A stretch of 64,000 nucleotides of DNA from a virus. This document shows positions 1 through 21,268 of this stretch, in pieces. Within the stretch, counting starts at the first letter, position 1. The number at the start of each line of letters is the position of its first letter. The position numbers were made by a program, and so were the translations under genes. Location: IMG/VR virus record IMGVR_UViG_3300043411_001575, positions 105,659 to 169,658 of that record; one strand, given 5' to 3'. A model generated the notes under the pieces. The model saw only the letters and a program-made list of their open reading frames with translations, was not told where the DNA came from and ran no database searches.

Positions 1-35
1 AGTACAAAAGCCCACATTGCACAAAGCCGATGTTA
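1..35 (+). repeat. Partial attC-like site H0 (right arm only, cut by window edge)
   Basis: TGTTA at 31-35; GTTAGCCGCAGTA is complementary to TATTGCGGCTAAC at the end of cassette 1. Confidence 0.7.
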
Positions 36-766
36 GCCGCAGTACATTCTATCAGGGTGATTGTCTTGTGGAAATGGATAAGATTTCCGATAAAAGTGTG
101 GATATGATTTTATGTGATTTGCCTTATGGAACAACAGCTTGCAAATGGGATAGTGTCATTCCTTTTGAGCCACTTTGGAAGCAATATGAAAGGATTATAA
201 AAGATAACGGGGCAATAGTTTTGACAGCTTCGCAACCATTTACAACAATATTAATAAGCAGCAATATAAAGTTATTCAGGTATGAATTAATTTGGCAAAA
301 GGATAAGGCAAGTGGGTTTTTAAATGCTAATAAAATACCATTGAAAGCACACGAAAACGTTTTAGTATTTTACAAAAAGTTACCTACATATAATCCGCAA
401 AAAACCATTGGTGGGCTGCAAAGGAAAAGGACAAGGAAAAAACCAACGCATGAGGTTTTAGGTAAAACTGGTGTAAATGAAAAACACGTTATTTGGCAAG
501 ATAACACAAGATACCCTATAAGTGTTTTAGAATTTGATGTAGATACTATTAACCACAGTTTGCACCCTACTCAAAAACCAATAGCATTAATGGAATATTT
601 AATAAAAACCTACACCAACGAAGGAGAAACAGTTTTAGATAACTGTATGGGTTCAGGAACAACTGGTGTGGCTTGTAAAAAAACAGGTAGGCACTTTATC
701 GGAATAGAAAAGGATGAAAAGTATTTTGAAATTGCCGTTAGCAGGGTGTCTGCGTATTGCGGCTAA
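17..766 (+). CDS. N6-adenine/N4-cytosine DNA methyltransferase (beta class), cassette 1; true start probably upstream of window
   Basis: DLPY motif IV, HPTQKP, DNCMGSGTTG motif I; frame open to the window edge; stop codon is the TAA of TAAC. Confidence 0.92.
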   Translation: MHKADVSRSTFYQGDCLVEMDKISDKSVDMILCDLPYGTTACKWDSVIPFEPLWKQYERIIKDNGAIVLTASQPFTTILISSNIKLFRYELIWQKDKASGFLNANKIPLKAHENVLVFYKKLPTYNPQKTIGGLQRKRTRKKPTHEVLGKTGVNEKHVIWQDNTRYPISVLEFDVDTINHSLHPTQKPIALMEYLIKTYTNEGETVLDNCMGSGTTGVACKKTGRHFIGIEKDEKYFEIAVSRVSAYCG

Positions 767-878
767 CGTTTTGCAGATAGGCGTTGTTGCCTCACAAATG
801 ATTGATTGAAACACTAAATTTAATAATATGGGAAATGATAATTTAAAAACGGAAAGCAATAACGCCAATGTGCTGTTA
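764..878 (+). repeat. attC-like hairpin H1
   Basis: TAACG-tttt-GCAGATAGGCGTTGTTGC ... GCAATAACGCCAATGTGC-TGTTA. Confidence 0.85.
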
Positions 879-1169
879 GGTGCTGGGTTTGTTTACTTGG
901 TAGAATGTTCATCAGGAAGTTGGGATAGTTACCATTGGTGGGTTGGAGGAATATTTGAAAAGCAAGAAGATGCTGATAAATATGCACAAAGCTTGAATGA
1001 TGAAAACAAACGATTAAAAGAGGTTGAATGCTCAATAAAAACACCATTTGAAGATATGACTGATGAAGAAGAAACGGAGTATTACAGGTGGTGGAATGGT
1101 AACAATGATGCTATGGAATGGAATGGTGCTAAAGTTAAGCAGTACCCCATAAACAAACCTTGCACCTAA
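828..1169 (+). CDS. Hypothetical protein, cassette 2
   Basis: 113 aa ORF; ATG inside the H1 loop, stop in the next TAAC. Confidence 0.8.
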   Translation: MGNDNLKTESNNANVLLGAGFVYLVECSSGSWDSYHWWVGGIFEKQEDADKYAQSLNDENKRLKEVECSIKTPFEDMTDEEETEYYRWWNGNNDAMEWNGAKVKQYPINKPCT

Positions 1170-1254
1170 CGATTGGGTGTATGAGAAGGTTTGCTTAGAT
1201 GAACTTTTAAATTTACACAGAATTTTATAGCAAACTTTCTTATACACCTTGTTA
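1167..1254 (+). repeat. attC-like hairpin H2
   Basis: GGTGTATGAGAAGGTTTGCT / AGCAAACTTTCTTATACACC arms between TAACG and TGTTA. Confidence 0.85.
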
Positions 1255-1317
1255 TGTACAGGCACGGTAAATTACCGATGAACTTAATTAAATGAACGAA
1301 ACTAATAATTTTTAAAA

Positions 1318-2058
1318 ATGTGGGATGGCAAATATGCTTTTGAAAAAAGCAAAATAATACAAGGAGATAGTTTGGATAAAATAAAATATATACCTAATGG
1401 CAGTATTGACTTAATTGTAACTGACCCACCGTATAAAATGACGAAACAAGGTAATTCTTGCAGACCAAATTATATGAAAAGTGGAATGGGTGAAAACTTA
1501 TTTGATGGTGAATTACCAAATACAAAAGAATGGATGAAACTTTGTTTTGATAAACTAAAAGACGATGCCCATTTCTATGTATTTACCAATATAAATAGTT
1601 TGCACGAATACCTTGATGTTGCAAAAGAATGTGGATTTAAACTACATAATATTATAAGTATGATTAAAGATACCAAAATGCCTAATAGATGGTATTTAAA
1701 ATACACTGAATTTGTATTGTTTTTTAGAAAAGGTAAAGCGTTTCCAATAAACGATATGACAAGTAGAGATTATGAATTTGTTGAAACACCAACATTAAAA
1801 AATGGCAAAATACATATATCACAAAAACCATTGAATTTTATTGAAAAACTAATAACAAATTCATCAAATGAAGGTGAAATATGTTTGGATTTATTTAGTG
1901 GAAGCGGAACACTTGCAGAAGCCTGTATAAATACAAATAGAGATTTCATTATTATAGAGAAAAACCCAAATGACTTTGAAAAAGGCAAAGAAAGGGTGGG
2001 AAAAATTTTTAAAAATTATGGAATTAACATACAACCTTTAATCGAAGCACAAATGTAG
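1318..2058 (+). CDS. N6/N4 DNA methyltransferase, cassette 3
   Basis: TDPPY, HISQKP, DLFSGSGT motifs. Confidence 0.92.
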   Translation: MWDGKYAFEKSKIIQGDSLDKIKYIPNGSIDLIVTDPPYKMTKQGNSCRPNYMKSGMGENLFDGELPNTKEWMKLCFDKLKDDAHFYVFTNINSLHEYLDVAKECGFKLHNIISMIKDTKMPNRWYLKYTEFVLFFRKGKAFPINDMTSRDYEFVETPTLKNGKIHISQKPLNFIEKLITNSSNEGEICLDLFSGSGTLAEACINTNRDFIIIEKNPNDFEKGKERVGKIFKNYGINIQPLIEAQM

Positions 2059-2068
2059 TGCTTGTACA

Positions 2069-2155
2069 TAACGTTTTCGGGCTTGGCGAAGGTGGGCTTG
2101 TAGGATGCTCAATTTTAGCACAATGTGTCTGCCCACTTTTGCCAAACCCGTGTTA
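2069..2155 (+). repeat. attC-like hairpin H3
   Basis: CGGGCTTGGCGAAGGTGGGC / GCCCACTTTTGCCAAACCCG arms. Confidence 0.85.
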
Positions 2156-2252
2156 TATGAAGTGCCGACTTATTAAGCAGAATTTTAAATTGAAACTATA
2201 AACAGAAAAACAAAAAAGAAAAAAAGCGTAGGGAATTTTAAAAACAAACAAT

Positions 2253-2519
2253 ATGGAAAAGAATTTTATTGAAAAAGCAGAAAAAGAAATTGGTAGAAAA
2301 TTTGGTTTTTTCATCAGATGTGATGATAAAAACAAACCAACAGAAGTATTAACCGATATGTACTTTGAACTATGGGAAACAGAAAAGATGAACGAGATTT
2401 TATCTTTATGCGAAACACATAATCTTAAATACGATTTTGGTTTAGAAAGTTTTGATACCAAAATAGATGCTATTGAACAAGAAATATGTATTGTTTCAAC
2501 TAATTGCGAAAATTCATAA
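2253..2519 (+). CDS. Hypothetical protein, cassette 4 gene 1
   Basis: 88 aa ORF with A-rich leader; stop abuts the next ATG. Confidence 0.65.
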   Translation: MEKNFIEKAEKEIGRKFGFFIRCDDKNKPTEVLTDMYFELWETEKMNEILSLCETHNLKYDFGLESFDTKIDAIEQEICIVSTNCENS

Positions 2520-2520
2520 A

Positions 2521-3264
2521 ATGGAAGCAAATACGATTTACAAAGGCGATTGCTTTGAACTTATAAAGCAAATAACAAAAGCAGATAACGTCAAACTTAT
2601 TATTACAGACCCACCATATTTACATAATAAAGGAGGTGGGAAAACATCGGGAACAGAGGGTAAAAGTTCAATAGCTAATAGCCCTATGTATAAATTCGAT
2701 TCATTTATGATGGAAGATATGAGTTCTTTTTTAGAGGAAGATGTTTATAATCTATTAGATGAATATAAAAGAATAATGACAAAATTAAACTGCTTTATAT
2801 TTACTAATGACACTTTGATACCGTATTATACAATGTGGGCAGTTAAAAACAATAAAAAGTTTACAATTTTAACTTGGGAAAAACCATTGTCGATTTTAAA
2901 CAGAAATAGATTTAGTCAGAATTTAGAATATGTTGTGAGGATTTACGACAATGGAACTGCACTTAATTTAATAGATTTAGAAGCATATCCCGAAAAGAAA
3001 AACTACTACTCAAAAAACAGAAGGTTAAATTCGCCTACAAATAAGATACACCCAACCCAAAAACCATTAGAATATCTACTTGGATTGATTGAGTTAAATA
3101 CAAATGAAGGCGATTTAGTATTAGATACGTTTTTTGGTAGTGGACAAACAGGTAAGGCTTGTCAGATTTTAAATAGAAATTATATCGGTTTTGAAAGAGA
3201 AGAAAAGTATGTTGAATTATCAAATAAATATTTACAACAAGGATTTGAAAAAACACTATTTTAA
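2521..3264 (+). CDS. N6/N4 DNA methyltransferase, cassette 4 gene 2
   Basis: TDPPY, HPTQKP, DTFFGSGQTG; start MEANTIY chosen at 2521 (ORF track starts at 2467). Confidence 0.9.
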   Translation: MEANTIYKGDCFELIKQITKADNVKLIITDPPYLHNKGGGKTSGTEGKSSIANSPMYKFDSFMMEDMSSFLEEDVYNLLDEYKRIMTKLNCFIFTNDTLIPYYTMWAVKNNKKFTILTWEKPLSILNRNRFSQNLEYVVRIYDNGTALNLIDLEAYPEKKNYYSKNRRLNSPTNKIHPTQKPLEYLLGLIELNTNEGDLVLDTFFGSGQTGKACQILNRNYIGFEREEKYVELSNKYLQQGFEKTLF

Positions 3265-3339
3265 AAGTGTGGTGGCTTTTTTCTTTTTGTTTTTCATTAA
3301 CGGAACTTCAATTGGAAACGGTCAGCAAGGCATTTCATA

Positions 3340-3459
3340 TAACGTTCGAGGGCTTGGCGAAGTGGCTGAACCTGAAGCTAAATAGAATTACTAAACTTAA
3401 AAATTAAGAACGAATGATTGATATAATTACTGAACAGCCATTTTGCCAAACCCGTGTTA
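3340..3459 (+). repeat. attC-like hairpin H4
   Basis: GGGCTTGGCGAAGTGGCTG / CAGCCATTTTGCCAAACCC arms; near-identical to H5, with the same arms as H12. Confidence 0.85.
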
Positions 3460-4223
3460 GTGGCAGTACTTTTGTGAATGCTGATTGCTTTGATGTTTTT
3501 CCTTTTATCGAGGATAAATCAATTGATGCTATTATTTGCGATTTGCCCTATGGAACAACTCAATGTAAATGGGATAGCATTATTAATTTAGATTTGATGT
3601 GGACGCAATACAACAGAATAATAAAAGATAACGGCATTTTTATATTATTTGCAGATGAGCCTTTTACAAGCATATTAATAAATAGTAACATTAAAAATTT
3701 TAAGCAAAGAATAACTTGGGATAAACAAATAGCAGGAGGTCATTTAAACGCTAAAAAAATGCTATTGAAAAGAACTGAGGATATATGCTTATTTTCAAAT
3801 GTTAAAAATGGAAAATATACATACAATCCTATTTTAAAAGATAAGGATTTTAAAAACATAAGAGATAGAAACGGAGAAAACAGAAAAGAGTTTAAAGGCG
3901 GTTATGTAGGGAAACACAATAGTACGTTGAGTAAAGAGCATAACAATAAAAAAAGTTACCCAGATAATTTAATTTCCTTTTCAGCAAGAAAAGGCGATTG
4001 TAACCCTATAAATAGATTACACCCAACACAAAAACCACTTGAATTGATGGAATATCTTATAAAAACCTATACTAATGAGGGCGATTTGGTTTTAGATAAC
4101 ACAATGGGTTCTGGAACAACAATTTTAGCTGCTATAAAAAATAATAGAATTGGTATAGGAATTGAAAAGGAAAAACAATATTATGATGTCGCTGTTCGTA
4201 GGGCTTCGGAGTATTGCCACTAA
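3414..4223 (+). CDS. N6/N4 DNA methyltransferase, cassette 5
   Basis: DLPY, HPTQKP, DNTMGSGTT; ATG in H4 loop. Confidence 0.92.
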   Translation: MIDIITEQPFCQTRVSGSTFVNADCFDVFPFIEDKSIDAIICDLPYGTTQCKWDSIINLDLMWTQYNRIIKDNGIFILFADEPFTSILINSNIKNFKQRITWDKQIAGGHLNAKKMLLKRTEDICLFSNVKNGKYTYNPILKDKDFKNIRDRNGENRKEFKGGYVGKHNSTLSKEHNNKKSYPDNLISFSARKGDCNPINRLHPTQKPLELMEYLIKTYTNEGDLVLDNTMGSGTTILAAIKNNRIGIGIEKEKQYYDVAVRRASEYCH

Positions 4224-4340
4224 CGTTATCGGGCTTGGCGAAGTGGCTGAACCCGAAGCTAAATAGAATTACTAAACTTAAAAATTAAAAACGAATGTCA
4301 AATAGAATTACAGAACAGCCATTTTGCCAAACCAGTGTTA
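4221..4340 (+). repeat. attC-like hairpin H5
   Basis: Same arm family as H4. Confidence 0.85.
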
Positions 4341-5053
4341 GTGGCAGTACTTTTGTAAATGCTGATTGCTTTGATGTTTTTCCTTTTATTGAGGACAAAT
4401 CAATTGATGCTATTATTTGCGATTTGCCTTATGGAACTACTGCTTGTAAGTGGGATACAATTATACCATTTGAGCCGCTATGGGAGCAGTACAAGCGAGT
4501 GATTAAACCTAATGGTGCGATAGTGCTGTTTAGCAAAGAGCCATTTACGTGCATATTGAGAACAAGTGAAATTAAAATTTTTAAGCAACCTCTTATTTGG
4601 GATAAGGTTAATTCAGATAACCCTATGCAGGCAAAAAGAAGACATCTAAACACTACGGAGGATATTTCTATCTTTTACAAATCTCAATGTACTTATAACC
4701 CACAAGGTCTTATAAAGTCAAATATAAAAAAGGGAGGGAAGCAAGGGATAATGATTGATAGTAGTGGTAAGGAAAAAGAACAATATATTCAAGAGAATAC
4801 CAATTATCCGAAAAATATATTAGTGTACCCGATAGAAAGAAAGGCGGTTCATCCAACTCAAAAACCCGAAGCACTCCTGCAATACTTAGTCAAAACCTAC
4901 ACTAACGAAGGCGATATAGTCTTAGATAACTGTATGGGTTCAGGTACAACAAATCTTGCTTGTTTAAAATTAAATCGCAAATCAATTGGAATAGAAAAGG
5001 AAAAACAATATTACGATGTCGCTGTTCGTAGGGCTTCTGAGTATTGCCACTAA
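4295..5053 (+). CDS. N6/N4 DNA methyltransferase, cassette 6 (paralog of cassette 5)
   Basis: DLPY, HPTQKP, DNCMGSGTT; ATG in H5 loop; ends near-identical to cassette 5. Confidence 0.92.
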   Translation: MSNRITEQPFCQTSVSGSTFVNADCFDVFPFIEDKSIDAIICDLPYGTTACKWDTIIPFEPLWEQYKRVIKPNGAIVLFSKEPFTCILRTSEIKIFKQPLIWDKVNSDNPMQAKRRHLNTTEDISIFYKSQCTYNPQGLIKSNIKKGGKQGIMIDSSGKEKEQYIQENTNYPKNILVYPIERKAVHPTQKPEALLQYLVKTYTNEGDIVLDNCMGSGTTNLACLKLNRKSIGIEKEKQYYDVAVRRASEYCH

Positions 5054-5107
5054 CGGTATCCGTATAAGGGAAGTGCGAGGAACGAGCATTTACTTTATAC
5101 GGTGTTA
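5051..5107 (+). repeat. attC-like hairpin H6 (shortest, 57 bp)
   Basis: CCGTATAAGGGAAGTGC / GCATTTACTTTATACGG arms. Confidence 0.85.
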
Positions 5108-5198
5108 GCAAAGTGCGTTGGGATTGTGTGTCGGCTCGTTCCAAAACCATTTATTTTCTTTTTTTTGGGGAGGTTTTGAAAACTTTTTTACTAAAATA

Positions 5199-5229
5199 CT
5201 TGCTAAATGACAATTTATATTTATCTTTG
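5199..5229 (+). promoter_or_regulatory. Bacteroidota sigma70-type promoter inside cassette 7
   Basis: TTG at 5200-5202, 19 nt spacer, TATCTTTG at 5222-5229 (TAnnTTTG -7 consensus). Confidence 0.65.
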
Positions 5230-5260
5230 AACCATATTAATAATCTAAAAACAAAACAAA

Positions 5261-5572
5261 ATGATTTACAAAAAAACACACTATGATAAAAAGGCTTTAA
5301 ACAGCCACGTTTCAAAAATAAAAGATGCAGGAGGAAATGCAATAGTAGATGGATTATCGGTTAGATATTTCTATCCATCCAATACCATTGGTGAAATTAG
5401 ATTAAAGCATAAGAGTTGGAAGAAAACAGAAAGACAAGAAGTTTTGTTTATTGTTTTAGTTTCTGAAAAAGATAAAACGCCATACTATTCAGCAATGTAT
5501 TTCCCGAAATGGGTTGAAATAGGAGGTGTTTATGGAAACAAAAATGACATAACAATAATCGAAAAGTTTTAA
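5261..5572 (+). CDS. Hypothetical protein, cassette 7 gene 1
   Basis: 103 aa ORF downstream of the promoter, A-rich leader. Confidence 0.75.
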   Translation: MIYKKTHYDKKALNSHVSKIKDAGGNAIVDGLSVRYFYPSNTIGEIRLKHKSWKKTERQEVLFIVLVSEKDKTPYYSAMYFPKWVEIGGVYGNKNDITIIEKF

Positions 5573-5574
5573 CT

Positions 5575-5730
5575 ATGAAACTGTCTGTAACAGAATATGC
5601 AAAACAGCTTGGCGTAACTCGTCAAGCCGTTTTGTTACAAATTAAAGAAAAAAGGTTGCCTAAAAATGTGAAGGTTGAAAAAATCGGAAATACTTATTCT
5701 TTAACTGTGGGTGGGCAAAAAAGAAAATAA
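5575..5730 (+). CDS. Small helix-turn-helix DNA-binding protein (excisionase/MerR-like), cassette 7 gene 2
   Basis: Read by hand, absent from the ORF track: MKLSVTEYAKQLGVTRQAVLLQIKEKRLPKNVKVEKIGNTYSLTVGGQKRK (51 aa). Confidence 0.7.
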   Translation: MKLSVTEYAKQLGVTRQAVLLQIKEKRLPKNVKVEKIGNTYSLTVGGQKRK

Positions 5731-5749
5731 ATGGTTTTGGAATGTTTGC

Positions 5750-5839
5750 TAACGTATGGTGCTATGAGCAGGTTTGCCTTGCAGAAATGTTCAAATTTAG
5801 CACTAATGTTATTGGCAAACTTGCTTATAGCACGTGTTA
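5750..5839 (+). repeat. attC-like hairpin H7
   Basis: GTGCTATGAGCAGGTTTGCC / GGCAAACTTGCTTATAGCAC arms. Confidence 0.85.
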
Positions 5840-5875
5840 GCGGTAGTTTATTTTTCAAAAATTAAAATTAAAAAT

Positions 5876-6334
5876 ATGGGAACACAAGTAGTAGGAGAAA
5901 GTAACAGCGTTGAGTATAGCACTCCGTTGAAAATAGTACAGCCATTGATAAACGAATTTGGCTTAACAAGAGATGTTTGTGCAAGTGAATTAAACCACAA
6001 ACTACCCGATTATTGGACAAAAGAAGATAATTCACTTGCTATGAATTGGAAAGGTAATTGTTGGATGAACCCACCATTTAGCAGAGATTTGAATAAGTGG
6101 GTAAAGAAAGCGTGTAATGATGCTGAAAGGTTTGGAGGAACGAAAGTTTGTTTAATACCTGTAAGAAGCAATACAAAATGGTGGGCGGAAGTTTGTGTAA
6201 AAGCAGAAATTCGTTTTATCAATGGCGAAGTAAATTTTAATGATGAAGAACGTGGACTTTGGTTGCCGATGTGTATTATCATTTTCGGTGAGAAGGCAAA
6301 GGTTGGCACGTTCTCTGTCTTAAATTACCGCTAA
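5876..6334 (+). CDS. Phage-type DNA N6-adenine methyltransferase (Dam family), cassette 8
   Basis: STP, DVCAS, WMNPPF, LIPVRSNTKWW, IRFINGEVNF motifs; start at MGTQ. Confidence 0.88.
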   Translation: MGTQVVGESNSVEYSTPLKIVQPLINEFGLTRDVCASELNHKLPDYWTKEDNSLAMNWKGNCWMNPPFSRDLNKWVKKACNDAERFGGTKVCLIPVRSNTKWWAEVCVKAEIRFINGEVNFNDEERGLWLPMCIIIFGEKAKVGTFSVLNYR

Positions 6335-6404
6335 CGTTTTGCAGCTAACAGAAGGCGGCTTTTTAGCAAACTTAGTACTTGCCGCTTTTTGTTAGCTGCT
6401 GTTA
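6332..6404 (+). repeat. attC-like hairpin H8
   Basis: GCAGCTAACAGAAGGCGGC / GCCGCTTTTTGTTAGCTGC arms. Confidence 0.85.
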
Positions 6405-6462
6405 GTGGACTGTTAAATTATTAAAAAAGAAAAAAGGAGGGGTGCGAGGGCATCTAAACATA

Positions 6463-7299
6463 ATGGACAAGAAGAAACTTTTAATTGCTTTTAGTGGTGG
6501 AGAAACATCTGCATTTATGGCTCAATGGTTATGGAAACATAAACAAGGTGAATACGAAATGTTATTTGCTTTTGCTAATACTGGGGTTGAGAATGAAGAA
6601 ACTTTAAACTTTGTGCATAAATGCGAAGTTGAATTTGGTATAAATGTTAATTGGTTGGAAGCAGTAATAGACCAAGAGAAAGGGAAAGGCACAAGGCATA
6701 AGATTGTTGATTACAAAACAGCAAGTAGAAACGGACAACCATTTGAGGAACTGATAAAGAAATACGGTTTACCAAACCAACAGCGATTTCACTGCACAAG
6801 GGAGTTAAAAAATAATACATTGATTTCATTTGCAAAAAGTATTTGGGGAAAGGAAAAGTATTATTTAGCAATAGGAATTAGAGTAGATGAATTTGATAGG
6901 ATGAATGATAAATTTAAAGAGTTGAGAATTGTTTATCCGTTAATTTCAGAAATTCCAATGACAAAGCCAAAGATTAATTTTTGGTGGAAACAACAACCGT
7001 TTAGATTAGAATTAAAAGGTTATCAAGGGAATTGTGTTACTTGCTACAAAAAAAGTGATAAAAAATTGTTTCAGATAGCTAAAGAAAATCCAAGTGCATT
7101 TGATTTCTTTGATAGAATGGAAGAACAATATGGAGAAGGTAAGTATCAATTTTTTAGGCAGAACCGAACAGCTAAACAAATTATGGAACAAGCTAAAGAA
7201 TGGAATGGCAATGTAACCGATGACGCACAAAATGTTACAATACAAACAGATTTATTTAGCGAAAGTTGTGAAGCATTTACAAGCGATTGCGGTGTTTAA
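6463..7299 (+). CDS. PAPS-reductase-like / adenine nucleotide alpha-hydrolase family protein, cassette 9
   Basis: FSGGETS PP-loop, FANTGxE, CTRELK, IGIRxDE, YPL, GNCxxC motifs. Confidence 0.85.
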   Translation: MDKKKLLIAFSGGETSAFMAQWLWKHKQGEYEMLFAFANTGVENEETLNFVHKCEVEFGINVNWLEAVIDQEKGKGTRHKIVDYKTASRNGQPFEELIKKYGLPNQQRFHCTRELKNNTLISFAKSIWGKEKYYLAIGIRVDEFDRMNDKFKELRIVYPLISEIPMTKPKINFWWKQQPFRLELKGYQGNCVTCYKKSDKKLFQIAKENPSAFDFFDRMEEQYGEGKYQFFRQNRTAKQIMEQAKEWNGNVTDDAQNVTIQTDLFSESCEAFTSDCGV

Positions 7300-7368
7300 C
7301 CTTTTCACAGTTTTGAAAAAACTGAAAGAGTGCGTGGGCTTTTTCTTTTTTAATAATTTAATTGCCAC

Positions 7369-7494
7369 TAACGGTTCGCAGGTATATTTAGTTGCGGACT
7401 TAGTAACACAAAACTTTAAATTTAGAAGAAATGAAGAAAGAAGAACAAAACTCGAATGAACCACAAAAACCGCAATTGAATATACCTGCTGTTA
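7369..7494 (+). repeat. attC-like hairpin H9
   Basis: GCAGGTATATTTAGTTGCGG / CCGCAATTGAATATACCTGC arms. Confidence 0.85.
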
Positions 7495-7787
7495 GTTGCA
7501 GTGTTGTTCATTGCAAGAAAGCACCTTATGATGTTTATATTGGAAGACCAAGCAAATGGGGTAATCCATTCACACACATAAAAGACGGTAAAACACTTGC
7601 AAAACATATTGTAGGTAGTAGAGATGAAGCAGTCGAAGCATATCTTGAATGGATTACCAACGGAGAAGGTAAACATTTGATGAGTGATTTACACGAATTG
7701 AAAGATAAGGTGCTTGGTTGTTGGTGTCATCCACAATCTTGTCACGGAGATGTACTTTCGGAGTTGGTTGCTAAACATTGCAACTAA
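7431..7787 (+). CDS. DUF4326-like protein, cassette 10
   Basis: VYIGRPSKWGNPF and LGCWCHPQSCHGDVL motifs; ATG in H9 loop. Confidence 0.85.
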   Translation: MKKEEQNSNEPQKPQLNIPAVSCSVVHCKKAPYDVYIGRPSKWGNPFTHIKDGKTLAKHIVGSRDEAVEAYLEWITNGEGKHLMSDLHELKDKVLGCWCHPQSCHGDVLSELVAKHCN

Positions 7788-7909
7788 CGTTTTGCAGGTA
7801 TATTTAGTGCCGAATTTAAAAACGAAAAATATGAATTTTATACAAAAGTTATTTAAAAGCAGAAAGGTTAATGAACCGATGAACTCGGCATTGAATATAC
7901 CTGTTGTTA
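7785..7909 (+). repeat. attC-like hairpin H10
   Basis: GCAGGTATATTTAGTGCCGA / TCGGCATTGAATATACCTGT arms. Confidence 0.85.
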
Positions 7910-8133
7910 TACCTCGTTTATCTTCTGATTGGATAAAATTTGAGGATGAAAAACCACCACACGAAGTAGTATTAGCTGCTTGCGATACTTATGATTGTGG
8001 ATGGACTATGGATACTGTTTGGTGGTATGAAGATAAGCAATGTTGGATGGTTACTGGTGCAGTTAAAAGTACAGAAGCACATTTACCATACACACATTGG
8101 CGTAAATTACCACCATTTCCAAATGAGGTATAA
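7831..8133 (+). CDS. DUF551-like phage protein, cassette 11
   Basis: WIKFEDEKP...THWRKLPPFP pattern; ATG at 7831 in H10 loop. Confidence 0.7.
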   Translation: MNFIQKLFKSRKVNEPMNSALNIPVVIPRLSSDWIKFEDEKPPHEVVLAACDTYDCGWTMDTVWWYEDKQCWMVTGAVKSTEAHLPYTHWRKLPPFPNEV

Positions 8134-8256
8134 CGTATTGGTGCTATACGAAGGAGGCGATTATTAGCACTAAATTTGATGCGGAGTACAAATGTTTGTT
8201 TAACCACAAATGTTTCTGCGGAGTACCAAACCGCCTCTTTTGTATAGCACGTGTTA
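8131..8256 (+). repeat. attC-like hairpin H11
   Basis: GTGCTATACGAAGGAGGCG / CGCCTCTTTTGTATAGCAC arms; TGCGGAGTAC occurs twice in the loop. Confidence 0.85.
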
Positions 8257-8320
8257 TACGCTGGCACGGTTGATTAAACGAGAAACTTAAATTGAAACAC
8301 AAAACAAAATTTTTATTAAA

Positions 8321-9106
8321 ATGAGCGAGGGCAAAAAAGAAATATTATTAGGAGATTGTTTGGAACTTATGAAGGATATACCAAACGGAAGTATTGATAT
8401 GATACTTTGTGATTTACCATACGGAACAACTGCTTGTAAATGGGATAGTGTAATACCTTTTGAACCACTTTGGAAAGAATATGAAAGGATTATAAAGACC
8501 AATGGTGCTATTTTATTGTTTGGAACACAACCATTCACAACAGAACTAATATTGAGCAATAGAAAATTGTTTAAGTATGATATGGTTTGGTGCAAAGACA
8601 AACCTGCTGACTTCGGAAATGGCAATATAAAACCATTAAGATACCACGAAACAATTTGTGTATTTTATACCAAAACGCCAACATACAATAAGCAATTTGA
8701 AAGCAGAAAAGGAACTGGCTATTCAAGGGCTAAATATCCTGTAAATTACATAAACAATTCAGAGCATAAATTTGGAATGAAAGATGGTTCTTTTGATTAT
8801 GCAAATAAAGACAGAATGATTGGAACTGTAATAGATATTACAACTGGTGCAAGAGGTAGCATAAAACACCCAACAGTAAAGCCCGTTCCTTTATTTGAAC
8901 ATTTAATCAAAACATATACCAACGAAGGTGAATTGGTTTTAGATAATACAGCAGGAAGCGGAACAACTGCAATTGCTTGTTTGAATACTAAAAGGCAATT
9001 TATAGTAATGGAAAAAGAACAAAAGTATTACGATATGATTTTAAAAAGGGTGGGAGATTTTAATAAAAATTTTGAACCGCAAACTCTCTTTGGAAACGAA
9101 ATGTAG
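8321..9106 (+). CDS. N6/N4 DNA methyltransferase, cassette 12
   Basis: DLPY, HPTVKP, DNTAGSGTT. Confidence 0.92.
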   Translation: MSEGKKEILLGDCLELMKDIPNGSIDMILCDLPYGTTACKWDSVIPFEPLWKEYERIIKTNGAILLFGTQPFTTELILSNRKLFKYDMVWCKDKPADFGNGNIKPLRYHETICVFYTKTPTYNKQFESRKGTGYSRAKYPVNYINNSEHKFGMKDGSFDYANKDRMIGTVIDITTGARGSIKHPTVKPVPLFEHLIKTYTNEGELVLDNTAGSGTTAIACLNTKRQFIVMEKEQKYYDMILKRVGDFNKNFEPQTLFGNEM

Positions 9107-9116
9107 TGCTTGCGTA

Positions 9117-9236
9117 TAACGGTATCGGGCTTGGCGAAGTGGCTGAACCGAATGTTTGATAGAAGCACAAAACTTAATAATTAAAAACGAATGATTGATA
9201 GAATTACTGAACAGCCATTTTGCCAAACCCGTGTTA
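9117..9236 (+). repeat. attC-like hairpin H12
   Basis: Same arm family as H4/H5. Confidence 0.85.
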
Positions 9237-9985
9237 TGTGCAGGGCGGTTGATAACCTTGAACTCCTTTTGTCGCAACCTGATGAAAGTGTAGATTTGAT
9301 TTACTGTGATATTCTTTATGGAACGGGTAGGAATTTCGGTGATTACCAAGACTTAAAACCAATTAGAAGCGAAATAGAAAGCCACTACCTACCAAGACTT
9401 ATTGAAATGAAACGAGTTTTAAAAAGTACAGGTAGTATTTATTTGCAAATGGATACACGAATAAACCATTGGATGCGCATTTTGATGGATGATGTTTTTG
9501 GGTATGAAAATTTCCGCAATGAAATAGTATTTGGATATAATGGGGGTGGTGTTTCAAAGAATTGTTATCCTAAAAAACACGACATAATCTTGTTTTATTC
9601 TGTTAGTGATAAATACTATTTTAATAACGAAAAGAAACCATACTCCGCTTTAAGTTCACAAAACTTATTGTGGAAACATAGGAATAAAAAAAGACTTGAT
9701 GAACTTAATGATGGCACACCTGTAACCGATGTATGGACTGATTTGAAGTTTAAAATAAATTACCAAGAGGAAGAATATACAGGATATGCTACCCAAAAAA
9801 CAAAAGAATTATTGAGCCGTATTGTTTTAGCTTCCACAAATGAAGGCGATACAGTTGCAGATTATTATTTAGGTAGTGGCACAACGGCAGTAGTTTGTAA
9901 GGAACTGAACCGAAATTTTATAGGTTGCGATATTAATCCAAAAGCTATTGAAATAACAAATGCTCGTTTAGATGCACTTTCGTAG
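9191..9985 (+). CDS. N6/N4 DNA methyltransferase (Mod-like), cassette 13
   Basis: YCDILY (variant motif IV), FRNEI, YATQK, DYYLGSGTT; ATG in H12 loop. Confidence 0.88.
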   Translation: MIDRITEQPFCQTRVMCRAVDNLELLLSQPDESVDLIYCDILYGTGRNFGDYQDLKPIRSEIESHYLPRLIEMKRVLKSTGSIYLQMDTRINHWMRILMDDVFGYENFRNEIVFGYNGGGVSKNCYPKKHDIILFYSVSDKYYFNNEKKPYSALSSQNLLWKHRNKKRLDELNDGTPVTDVWTDLKFKINYQEEEYTGYATQKTKELLSRIVLASTNEGDTVADYYLGSGTTAVVCKELNRNFIGCDINPKAIEITNARLDALS

Positions 9986-10044
9986 CTTTGCACATAACGT
10001 GTATTTAATGGAATGGAGTGTCAAAATCAATTAGTTACATAATA
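9985..10044 (+). other. Putative attI-equivalent primary recombination site
   Basis: Last TAACG (9995-9999) is not followed by a hairpin and lies directly 5' of the recombinase. Confidence 0.55.
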
Positions 10045-10914
10045 ATGGAAGATAAAATTAACAAATTAAGGAGGGAGTTATCCATAAGGAAATATGCTCC
10101 TAATACAGTTGAAACATATTGTTCATGTCTTAAAGTTATTTTTAGTAAATGTGGAATTAATCCAAGTATTGATTCTTTAAAGTCATATTTATTAACTATT
10201 GAAAATAGAAACTACCATAAACAAATAGTCGCTACATTCAGAAACTACTCTGAATTTGTATTAGGTATTAAATTATCTTTAAACGATGTTCCTTATCCTA
10301 GAAAACAAGAAAGTTTGCCTGAAATATATTCAGTTGAAGAGGTTTCTAAATTAATTAATATTCCTAAAAATTTAAAACATCAATCTATAATTTTTTTATT
10401 GTATGGATGTGGACTTAGAGTTAGTGAATTAATTAATTTAAAATTAACTGATATAGATAGTGATAGAATGGTTGTTAACATCCGAAAAGCAAAAGGAAAT
10501 AAGGACAGGCAAATAATGTTGGATGAATCTTTACTTAAATTACTTCGTGATTATTACACTGAATATAAACCAATAAATTATTTATTCAATGGTCAAAAAA
10601 AAGACCAATATAGTGACAGGTCTGTAAATGAACTTCTTAAATATTGGTCTAAAAAAGCAGGTATAAAAAAACATATTCATGCTCATTTATTAAGGCATTC
10701 ATTCGCTACCCATCTTTTAGATGCAGGAATAGACATGGCTATAATTCAAAAGTTATTAGGTCATTCAAACATAAAAACAACGCAAATTTATGCAAAAATT
10801 TCAACCAAATTAATATCTCAAATTAAATCTCCATTATCAAACATTAAAATCAATTCAAATGAAAAATCTAGTAATATTATTCCTTTGTGGAATTCTGATA
10901 GGTTTCCAAACTAA
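10045..10914 (+). CDS. Tyrosine recombinase (XerD/integron-integrase-like, without the IntI I2 insertion)
   Basis: YGCGLRVSE (R), KGNKDR (K), HLLRHSFATH (HxxR), LGHSNIKTTQIY (H, Y); N-terminal SAM-like domain; ORF track starts at GTG 10018. Confidence 0.93.
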   Translation: MEDKINKLRRELSIRKYAPNTVETYCSCLKVIFSKCGINPSIDSLKSYLLTIENRNYHKQIVATFRNYSEFVLGIKLSLNDVPYPRKQESLPEIYSVEEVSKLINIPKNLKHQSIIFLLYGCGLRVSELINLKLTDIDSDRMVVNIRKAKGNKDRQIMLDESLLKLLRDYYTEYKPINYLFNGQKKDQYSDRSVNELLKYWSKKAGIKKHIHAHLLRHSFATHLLDAGIDMAIIQKLLGHSNIKTTQIYAKISTKLISQIKSPLSNIKINSNEKSSNIIPLWNSDRFPN

Positions 10915-20098: not shown

Positions 20099-21268
20099 AT
20101 GTTAACCTATAAAAGAAAACTAAAAATAACTAAGGCTCAGGAGGAAAGAATTTCTTCATGGATTGGTGCGTGTCGTTTGGTTTACAATATGGGCTTAGAA
20201 ATTAAAAAAGAAACGTGGAAAAATAAACAGCAAAATGTTTCTGCTTATGATTTATCGAAACAACTTCCCTCAATAAAAGACGTAGAATGGGTAGCTGATG
20301 TTCCTGCTCAATGCCTTCAGAATTCATTGGAACGACTTGATAGGTCATATAAAAACTTCTTCCGTAATTTTAAATCAGGAGGCGGATTTCCAAAATTTAA
20401 ATCAAAAAGAGATTATAAGTCTATGTTGTTTAAACAAGGTGATTTAAATGCAAAGACACCTTTAATAACTCTTAGTAAAAACAAAATAAAACTTCCTAAG
20501 CTTGGTGAGGTATCATTTTTCAAAGATAAATCACCGATTATAGGTAAAATAAAAACAGTAACAATAAAGATAGAACCAACAGGATTTTTCTTGTACATTG
20601 TCTGTGACGGAGTTAGTAAAAGCATCTCAAACCCTGACGAAAGCCAAGTCATAGGGATTGACATGGGAGTAGCTAACTTCTGTTCAGACAGCAACGGAAA
20701 CTTCATCGAAAACCCAAGACACTTCAATAAATATGAAGATAGGCTTCGTATTGAAAATAGGAGTTTAGCTAGAAAAAAAAGAGGAAGTAACCGTTGGAAA
20801 AAACAAGCGAAAAAGCTATCACTTTTGCATCACAAAATATCTAATATTAGGAAGGATTTTTTGCATAAAGAATCCACCAAAATGGCTAAAAATTTCCATA
20901 CTATTTATTTGGAAGATTTGAATATTTCGAATATGTCGAAACGTCCAAAACCAAAGCAGGATGAGAATGGTAAGTTTATTCTAAATGGTTCTTCTGCAAA
21001 ATCAGGATTAAACAAATCAATCCTAGATGCAGGTTGGGGAATGTTTAGGGATATGCTCGAATACAAAACAAATGTAGTTCGAGTAGACCCAAAATACACC
21101 TCTCAAAAGTGCAACGAATGTGGCGAAAAAGATTCAAAGAATAGGTTATCACAAAGCGAATTTGTTTGTTTAAGCTGCGGTCACATCAGTCATGCTGATA
21201 CAAATGCAGCGAAAAATATTTTGAGCAAGGGCATTGCTCTCAATCGTGAACGTAAGGCACTAGTCTAA
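20099..21268 (+). CDS. tnpB: RNA-guided endonuclease TnpB (IS200/IS605 family, no tnpA)
   Basis: N-terminal HTH (YKRKLK...GACRLVYN), GFPKFK, RuvC-I GIDMG, RuvC-II LEDL, zinc finger CNECG/CLSCG, RuvC-III HADTNAAKNI. Confidence 0.93.
   Translation: MLTYKRKLKITKAQEERISSWIGACRLVYNMGLEIKKETWKNKQQNVSAYDLSKQLPSIKDVEWVADVPAQCLQNSLERLDRSYKNFFRNFKSGGGFPKFKSKRDYKSMLFKQGDLNAKTPLITLSKNKIKLPKLGEVSFFKDKSPIIGKIKTVTIKIEPTGFFLYIVCDGVSKSISNPDESQVIGIDMGVANFCSDSNGNFIENPRHFNKYEDRLRIENRSLARKKRGSNRWKKQAKKLSLLHHKISNIRKDFLHKESTKMAKNFHTIYLEDLNISNMSKRPKPKQDENGKFILNGSSAKSGLNKSILDAGWGMFRDMLEYKTNVVRVDPKYTSQKCNECGEKDSKNRLSQSEFVCLSCGHISHADTNAAKNILSKGIALNRERKALV

Follow-up and report, generated by a model that had tools for sequence, protein, structure and literature searches.

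Cassette array

The analysed DNA is a stretch of 64,000 nt, referred to below as the window, covering bases 105,659–169,658 of a 169,658-bp virus contig from IMG/VR (IMGVR_UViG_3300043411_001575; GC content 31%; CheckV completeness of the 170-kb contig 82%). Positions 1–9998 of the window contain 13 co-oriented, hairpin-bounded gene cassettes, many of them encoding DNA methyltransferases (MTases), and their genes point toward a tyrosine recombinase gene (10018–10914). Positions are those of the window unless genome positions are named, and all genes and hairpins described below lie on the plus strand. The original prediction, made from the letters of the window and its open reading frames (ORFs), had counted eight MTases (seven beta-class enzymes and one of the Dam family) in 13 cassettes, and both Pfam and the 13 hairpin-bounded units bear out this count. 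Its span, given from position 17, was corrected: the first MTase gene begins 37 nt before the window.

Every cassette begins with an imperfect hairpin at its 5' end, continues with the gene and closes with an RYYYAAC box at its 3' end. All 13 hairpins share one fold, an imperfect palindrome closed by a TAAC/GTTA clamp, with a stem of 19–20 bp, a bulge of 4–5 nt on the 5' side only and a loop of 9–70 nt. The features of attC-type sites, namely the RYYYAAC and GTTRRRY boxes, the asymmetric bulge and the variable loop, were found at all 13 sites. The folding z-scores range from −1.75 to −5.5, and the folding of 10 of the 13 hairpins was equalled by at most one of 200 shuffles. Rfam gave no attC-like family for the hairpins, only a chance microRNA match. 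In all 13 cassettes the closing R' 7-mer (GTTRRRY) and the R'' box that follows it (RYYYAAC) are perfectly complementary, a classical hallmark of DNA that can be circularised as a single unit from one site to the next. In seven of the 13 cassettes the start codon lies within the hairpin loop, and in seven the TAA of the box serves as the stop codon. Hairpin types recur, the same type may precede unrelated genes, and no runs of T were seen after the hairpins.

The first hairpin, S0 (−92 to 38, with the 3' part at 1–38 inside the window; TGCTAAC...GTTAGCC; z −5.2), holds in its loop the ATG of the beta-class MTase M1 (cassette 1, 1–766, true start −37), whose TAA stop codon lies within the R'' box. 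The loop of S1 (761–881; GGCTAAC...GTTAGGT) contains the ATG of a 113-amino-acid ORF with no family (cassette 2, 828–1169), the stop codon of which is again in the R'' box. S2 (1164–1257; ACCTAAC...GTTATGT; z −5.5) precedes the beta-class MTase M3 (cassette 3, 1318–2058). S3 (2066–2158; ACATAAC...GTTATAT) opens cassette 4, which has two genes, an 88-amino-acid ORF with no family (2253–2519) and the beta-class MTase M4 (2467–3264, likely start 2521); the first ORF stops 1 nt before the likely ATG of M4, which suggests that the two genes are translationally coupled. The loops of S4 (3337–3462; ATATAAC...GTTAGTG) and S5 (4218–4343; CACTAAC...GTTAGTG) hold the ATG codons of two further beta-class enzymes, M5 (cassette 5, 3414–4223) and M6 (cassette 6, 4295–5053), respectively; these two hairpins are near-identical. 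S6 (5048–5110; CACTAAC...GTTAGCA; z −4.4), with a short loop, is followed by two small ORFs of 103 and 51 amino acids with no family (cassette 7, 5261–5730).

The Dam-family MTase (cassette 8, 5876–6334) stands behind S7 (5747–5842; TGCTAAC...GTTAGCG; z −5.5), and a PP-loop ATPase of the PAPS-reductase/SspD/DndC kind (cassette 9, 6442–7299, likely start 6463) behind S8 (6329–6407; CGCTAAC...GTTAGTG). S9 (7366–7497; CACTAAC...GTTAGTT) and S10 (7782–7912; AACTAAC...GTTATAC) carry in their loops the start codons of a DUF4326 protein gene (cassette 10, 7431–7787) and of a 100-amino-acid ORF matching phrog_7704, a family without known function (cassette 11, 7831–8133). The last two cassettes encode the beta-class MTases M12 (cassette 12, 8321–9106), preceded by S11 (8128–8259; GTATAAC...GTTATAC), and M13 (cassette 13, 9191–9985), whose ATG is in the loop of S12 (9114–9239; GTATAAC...GTTATGT). 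A lone terminal R'' box, ACATAAC (9992–9998), complementary to the R' box of S12, ends the array.

In cassettes 4, 7 and 9, long-range inverted repeats of 19–26 nt bracket the gene just inside the R'/R'' boxes (2205–2223/3277–3295, 5139–5164/5717–5742 and 6413–6434/7340–7361); the 26-nt pair of cassette 7 and the 22-nt pair of cassette 9 are perfect. In single-stranded form such a cassette would fold into another, larger hairpin with the gene as its loop. Joints in metagenome contigs were found near these arms (2224>3262 and 6437>7295). The Bacteroidota promoter pattern TTTG-N17-23-TAnnTTTG gave 8 matches versus 7.8 expected, which is uninformative on cassette expression.

Methyltransferases

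The seven beta-class genes match PF01555 (N6_N4_Mtase) in Pfam with E-values from 1e-25 to 1e-43. Motif IV precedes motif I in all seven proteins, which is the beta-class order. Motif IV reads DLPY in four of them (M1, M5, M6 and M12), DPPY in two (M3 and M4) and DILY in M13. Because all seven have D-x-x-Y at this place, they look like N6-adenine enzymes. Thus the beta-class assignment in the original prediction stood, and its N6/N4 label could be split: SPPY enzymes, of the N4-cytosine type, occur in the array upstream of the window and are not among the seven inside it. Both variants, DLPY and DILY, are found again in homologues; DILY recurs in a 64%-identical paralogue at genome position 84314 and in gp007 of mumin, a cultured relative. 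The Dam-family gene (5834/5876–6334) matches PF05869 with an E-value of 2e-22 and carries the motif NPPF.

A hidden Markov model built from the seven window enzymes was run on the 170-kb contig. It detected 16 beta-class MTases, every one inside the array. The upstream part of the array additionally contains a D12-class enzyme, an MT-A70 enzyme, a weak Dam-like match and a protein assigned by PADLOC to MTase_II; in total there are approximately 21 MTases on the contig, and the array contains all that were detected. Motifs IV and I were detected in 14 of the 16 beta-class enzymes. Pairwise identity within this set has a maximum of 64% and a median of 26%. The ends of paralogues (the first ~60 and the last 60–90 residues) are 80–100% identical, and identity in the central ~120 residues is only 17–40%; the adjacent M5 and M6 are 63% identical overall and 20–40% identical in the central region. 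Beta-class MTases carry the target-recognition region centrally, whereas the conserved ends correspond to the catalytic and AdoMet-binding parts. The array MTases would thus combine a common catalytic chassis with differing target-recognition regions.

The ratio of nonsynonymous to synonymous substitution rates between the array MTases and their homologues in cultured phages is 0.15–0.37, which indicates purifying selection. Redundancy of the enzymes, named beforehand as a finding that would speak against a protective arsenal, was not observed at the identity levels given above, and the genes look both functional and non-redundant.

A metagenome protein set contains 1,398 homologues of M3 (E ≤ 1e-10), and 185,579 representative prokaryote genomes only two loci, too few for a test of linkage to restriction-modification genes. 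The family seems to belong almost wholly to viral or mobile DNA. Among the best 80 relatives of the MTases in IMG/VR, most lack such hairpins, which says little about arrays.

Search for nucleases and other cargo

No nuclease was found among the plus-strand ORFs of the window by Pfam, PHROGs or PADLOC, or among nine minus-strand ORFs of the window by Pfam. Over the whole ~38-kb array, no nuclease family was found for the larger ORFs without assignment or for ten smaller ones. Hence the absence of a recognisable restriction endonuclease, claimed earlier for the window, extends to the rest of the array. The small window ORFs (51–113 amino acids) gave no family with Pfam, PHROGs (except phrog_7704 for cassette 11) or PADLOC; nearly all known type II restriction enzymes are longer than this.

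The largest array protein without a family assignment (278 amino acids, genome positions 91060–91896) was considered as a restriction enzyme and rejected, as it has kinase motifs instead: a Gly-rich loop, a lysine in VLKI and the catalytic loop DFNGSN. Its profile matches protein kinases only. Over its N-terminal ~60 residues this protein has 70–80% identity to the beginnings of unrelated proteins, several of which have ART-PolyVal (PF18760) or DUF3990 domains; such common N-termini fit leaders encoded by shared hairpins.

The PP-loop protein of cassette 9 has the motif SGGETS and the PAPS-reductase fold, with a weak match to PF01507 (27 bits) and matches to phrog_424 (9e-43) and to SspD in PADLOC (1.5e-12), so that the earlier identification of a PAPS-reductase-like enzyme holds. 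Its proposed link to DNA modification of the DndC kind fared less well. Known phosphorothioation systems require a partner ATPase (DndD, SspC or BrxC) beside the PAPS-reductase-like enzyme (PMC12914056). The scan of the array ORFs, which did not extend to other parts of the contig, showed no such partner; therefore the link is weak, and a phosphorothioation role of cassette 9 is a lead only. The Dam-family and PAPS-reductase-like genes occupy adjacent cassettes (5834–7299), and phrog_33262 represents a single protein matching both families, i.e. the fusion exists in other phages.

DUF4326 proteins are predicted to process ADP-ribose derivatives and occur in fusions with Macro, SLOG, NADAR and parts of restriction-modification systems (PMC9503650, PMC7824862); the cargo may therefore extend beyond restriction. 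For the 103-amino-acid ORF of cassette 7, ESM Atlas gave scores of 0.80 and no lead. The 51-amino-acid ORF of the same cassette (5575–5730) starts with MKLSVTEYAK, and near-identical palindromic coding stretches (TEYAKQLGVTRQA) occur twice upstream in the array, at genome positions 84036–84221 and ~93900. Pfam gave no match for ORFs of this type; they resemble small proteins of the helix-turn-helix type and may be regulators or directionality factors.

Extent of the array and the recombinase

The array spans approximately 38 kb. Hairpins were detected from about genome position 77,800 to 115,656, with 39 detections there versus 1–2 per 10 kb elsewhere. We estimate its size at ~45–50 cassettes; the 13 in the window make up its recombinase-proximal third. 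The array stops at the TAAC of the lone ACATAAC box, 19–46 nt ahead of the recombinase start (GTG 10018 or ATG 10045). The approximately 45 nt that follow this TAAC (9999–10044, an attI-like region) are conserved beside a 79%-identical recombinase on another phage contig, where the sequence before TAAC is unrelated. An 11-kb metagenome contig ceases to match at position 9988. A single-protein search of IMG/VR with the recombinase retrieved one close relative, on a contig that ends 95 nt upstream, with any array out of view.

The contig has no tyrosine recombinase other than this one. The best matches of the enzyme are archaeal XerA (4a8e, 1.4e-44), aligned in one stretch, and the NCBIfam XerA model, against which it scores 206 bits (cut-off 220). 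Against the IntI model TIGR02249 it scores 155 bits (cut-off 265), in two stretches. Alignments with PRK15417 and with VchIntIA (PDB 2a3v) are likewise broken in two, the former skipping model positions ~193–238. The extra domain of IntI between patch III and box II is absent. Judged from these alignments, the window recombinase is Xer-like, lacks the IntI-specific insertion and is not an IntI.

Related phages and exchange of cassettes

Cultured Baltic Flavobacterium phages show 85–88% DNA identity to parts of the array region, and four records of Polaribacter phages match this region too. Metagenome runs that contain most of the stretch originate from fresh water and ground water. Given these matches and sources, the host of the phage is probably a member of Flavobacteriia. 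The cultured relatives of the genera Muminvirus and Lillamyvirus have hairpins of the same types, cassettes with 85–88% nucleotide identity and several MTases per genome.

Natural gain, loss and replacement of cassettes can be seen in these relatives. What separates phages mumin6-1 and mumin6-3, at 99.9% identity, is a single cassette of 506 nt, a unit consisting of a hairpin, a gene and a box, both ends of which share TAACGTT. In the comparison of mumin6-1 with hemulen6-1 the flanks are 99.7–99.8% identical, and one additional cassette, with TAACG|T at its borders, is present in hemulen. The final cassette encodes different MTases in these two phages and joins the common backbone exactly after TAAC. 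Swapping of cassettes, as originally predicted, is thus observed as whole-cassette differences at the boxes between near-identical cultured phages. Since the natural indels and replacements break at the R'' box, with the hairpin moving 5' of its gene, the crossover is placed, on the coding strand, in the box that precedes the hairpin, a mirror of classical integrons. A crossover at the R' (3') box, derived from one mumin/hemulen boundary, was considered and rejected, as the spacer right after TAACG already differs there.

In mumin6-1 the block with all four MTases is bracketed by a 14-nt direct repeat, AGCTTGCTTATAAC, at ~2310–2330 and 6985–7000 of the locus. One copy forms the first hairpin's box and the other the terminal box, and the block may have moved as a multi-cassette unit.

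One hairpin type is present in more than 116 viral contigs. In a census of 116 contigs with one hairpin type, 36 of 63 MTases and 101 of 608 other ORFs were adjacent to the hairpin (odds ratio 6.7); we do not count this enrichment as evidence because the query hairpin type encodes an MTase N-terminus. Logan contigs from four metagenomes of other studies contain breaks at hairpins with alternative neighbours, and their depths vary among cassettes. Both observations are treated as hints only, the short side of the joints at boxes (2068>5750, 4226>8139 and 772>3350) being just 23–31 nt.

Fifteen MTase types were reported among 35 Flavobacterium phage genomes, and plating on one host was poor for phages that lack a particular one of them (Nilsson 2020, PMC7077304); the text of that study describes neither cassettes nor hairpins, and the word 'repeat' appears in it in a procedural sense only.

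Restriction sites

We compared the observed and expected numbers of restriction sites in the 170-kb genome. GATC, GGCC, CCGG and CGCG are completely absent, with expected counts of 413, 94, 81 and 57, respectively. Other absent sites are GGACC (50 expected), GATATC (40), CTGCAG (20), CCAGG (16), CCATGG (15) and TCTAGA (14); several GGNNCC words are likewise at zero. CCAG/CTGG is depleted tenfold (59 observed versus 575 expected). The mumin region also lacks GATC, GGCC and CGCG. This purge is independent evidence for restriction enzymes as a major source of selection in the lineage. It also predicts that the MTases would cover motifs left unpurged.

Interpretation and alternative explanations

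We consider it likely that the array is an integron-like phage store of orphan MTase cassettes, directed chiefly against host restriction. The adjacent Xer-like recombinase would swap cassettes at the TAAC box, possibly helped by host Xer proteins; the substrate is probably the folded coding strand, and incoming cassettes would insert beside the recombinase. The MTases, if catalytically active, would methylate the phage genome at many motifs and block host restriction enzymes, and gain or loss of a cassette would alter the range of permissive hosts. The counter-defence reading proposed originally is supported, the MTases being found in discrete hairpin-bounded cassettes beside a tyrosine recombinase. 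The name integron is not kept: in integrons each gene stands before its own attC and the bottom strand recombines in the R' box, an arrangement that the phage array does not share, and because the polarity is mirrored and the recombinase is Xer-like, we regard the array as an integron analogue and not as a member of the family. A bolder version, to which we would give an even chance, is that Flavobacteriia phages own an independent integron analogue in which a plain Xer-type enzyme acts on start-codon-bearing coding-strand hairpins and maintains a shared, swappable counter-defence bank, its MTases built on one catalytic chassis with exchangeable recognition regions, so that the methylome and the host range can be re-programmed.

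Several observations weigh against the counter-restriction store or parts of it. The recombinase reaches the curated cut-off of neither the XerA nor the IntI model and could be an ordinary integrase or a dimer-resolution enzyme. In mumin6-1, the only cultured array-bearing phage searched, no PF00589 gene was found; host Xer or enzymes of a co-infecting phage are therefore possible catalysts, and the enzyme adjoining the array may not be the cassette mover. Cassettes distant from a promoter may be silent, and the hairpins could terminate transcription. The motif DILY of M13 deviates from the usual DPPY. With GATC absent from the genome, protection of this site cannot be the task of the Dam-family enzyme here. 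Finally, restriction enzymes are poorly recognisable by sequence, and several array proteins of 80–170 amino acids have no family.

Following from the point about the mover, a possible though rather unlikely alternative accepts the array and the same reading of its cargo, with a host XerC/XerD-type enzyme or an enzyme of a co-infecting phage moving the cassettes and the adjacent recombinase serving another purpose, e.g. lysogeny or dimer resolution. The clean swaps in Muminvirus and Lillamyvirus, combined with the mumin6-1 result, agree with it, as does the closeness of the window enzyme to Xer proteins. On the other hand, the array ends 19–46 nt from the start of the contig's sole tyrosine recombinase, and in the 79%-identical relative the junction region is conserved next to another cassette; both facts point to the adjacent enzyme. 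A less probable reading, which we think improbable altogether, is that the MTases are not mainly anti-restriction enzymes. They could mark the phage's own DNA against a phage nuclease degrading host DNA, or regulate replication, packaging or transcription; alternatively, most cassettes could be silent stock or selfish passengers. Distal cassettes of chromosomal integrons are mostly silent, several array proteins are without assignment, and the kinase-like protein, DUF4326 and the PP-loop enzyme point to a wider host takeover. Yet regulation hardly accounts for approximately 21 MTases that differ in their recognition regions, a nuclease was not found in the array, the genome-wide loss of restriction sites shows strong restriction pressure, and the correlation of MTase content with plating (PMC7077304) also speaks against this reading.

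The array could also be imagined without any site-specific system, the hairpins being terminators or of the repetitive extragenic palindrome type and the MTases having spread by tandem duplication and homologous recombination. The adjacent paralogues M5 and M6 with their near-identical upstream hairpins and the recurring hairpin types would fit such a history, and conserved gene ends could promote homologous exchange. We regard it as highly improbable and already largely refuted: the boundary 7-mers co-vary in each of the 13 cassettes, indels and replacements involving unrelated cassettes have their limits precisely at TAAC, one hairpin type stands before unrelated genes in more than 116 contigs, the array finishes in a lone box beside the recombinase, and no T runs follow the hairpins.

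Comparison with known systems

Classical integrons (IntI, attI and attC; class 1 and Vibrio chromosomal integrons) resemble the phage store in having short, promoter-poor cassettes that all point one way, imperfect palindromes that carry RYYYAAC and GTTRRRY boxes, complementary boundary boxes for each cassette, and a tyrosine recombinase at one end; the distinct junction site beside the recombinase has a candidate counterpart in the attI-like region of the phage. In contrast to them, the phage array resides on a phage replicon and has a Xer-like recombinase without the IntI insertion; the crossover maps to the box ahead of the hairpin on the coding strand, the hairpin precedes the gene, the genes are read toward the recombinase, and start codons lie in hairpin loops.

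Clusters of attC sites (CALINs) have been described in virulent phages, e.g. in Polaribacter phage P12002L with two MTases, where the cassettes were suggested to help phages overcome host defences and one site recombined with IntI1 (Qi 2023, PMC9892861). There, too, attC-like sites flank orphan MTase genes in phages of Flavobacteriia. Those clusters have 2–3 sites and five MTases in total, with no recombinase in the virulent phages, whereas the present array has ~45–50 cassettes, ~21 MTases and an adjacent recombinase. The Baltic Muminvirus and Lillamyvirus phages (PMC7077304) share the hairpin types, and their MTase content varies and tracks plating efficiency, but they are 38-kb siphoviruses with 4 MTases and without a recombinase (mumin6-1 searched). 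Hence the general idea (PMC9892861) and the variable MTases of the relatives (PMC7077304) are already published. New are the scale, the type of recombinase, the chassis common to enzymes whose recognition region varies, and the fact that all this is combined with a complete purge of sites.

Chromosomal integrons store anti-phage defence cassettes (bioRxiv 10.1101/2024.07.02.601686) and are thus also cassette stores in the conflict between phages and bacteria. They are bacterial and hold defence systems, whereas the present store is on the phage side and holds putative counter-restriction enzymes. In the CTX phage, XerCD recombination acts on folded single-stranded DNA and integrates the whole phage genome at dif; a Xer-type enzyme thus works there on a hairpin of one strand, as it would here, but CTX does not use this for shuffling gene cassettes. 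Phages avoid restriction sites in their genomes. Stand-alone MTases without a nuclease and the loss of restriction sites are common to the present phage and to other phages with orphan MTases (Murphy 2013, PMC3837797, as cited in PMC9892861); the present array has far more MTases, organised as mobile cassettes.

If this interpretation is correct, the array would be a phage-side counterpart of the bacterial integron stores of anti-phage cassettes, and would show how a phage carries ~20 anti-restriction enzymes and trades them among phages. It would provide a mechanism for rapid change of host range in aquatic Bacteroidota phages. An integron-like system that can be run with a simple Xer-type recombinase would also bear on the origins of integrons. 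The cultured relatives Muminvirus and Lillamyvirus, which grow on Flavobacterium LMO6 and LMO9, allow direct testing.

Other genes in the window

Matches to tail-fibre, endolysin/amidase and lytic-tail proteins were also found within the 64-kb window. A transposase of 389 amino acids (phrog_506, 6e-108) is encoded at 20099–21268, 9 kb past the end of the array.

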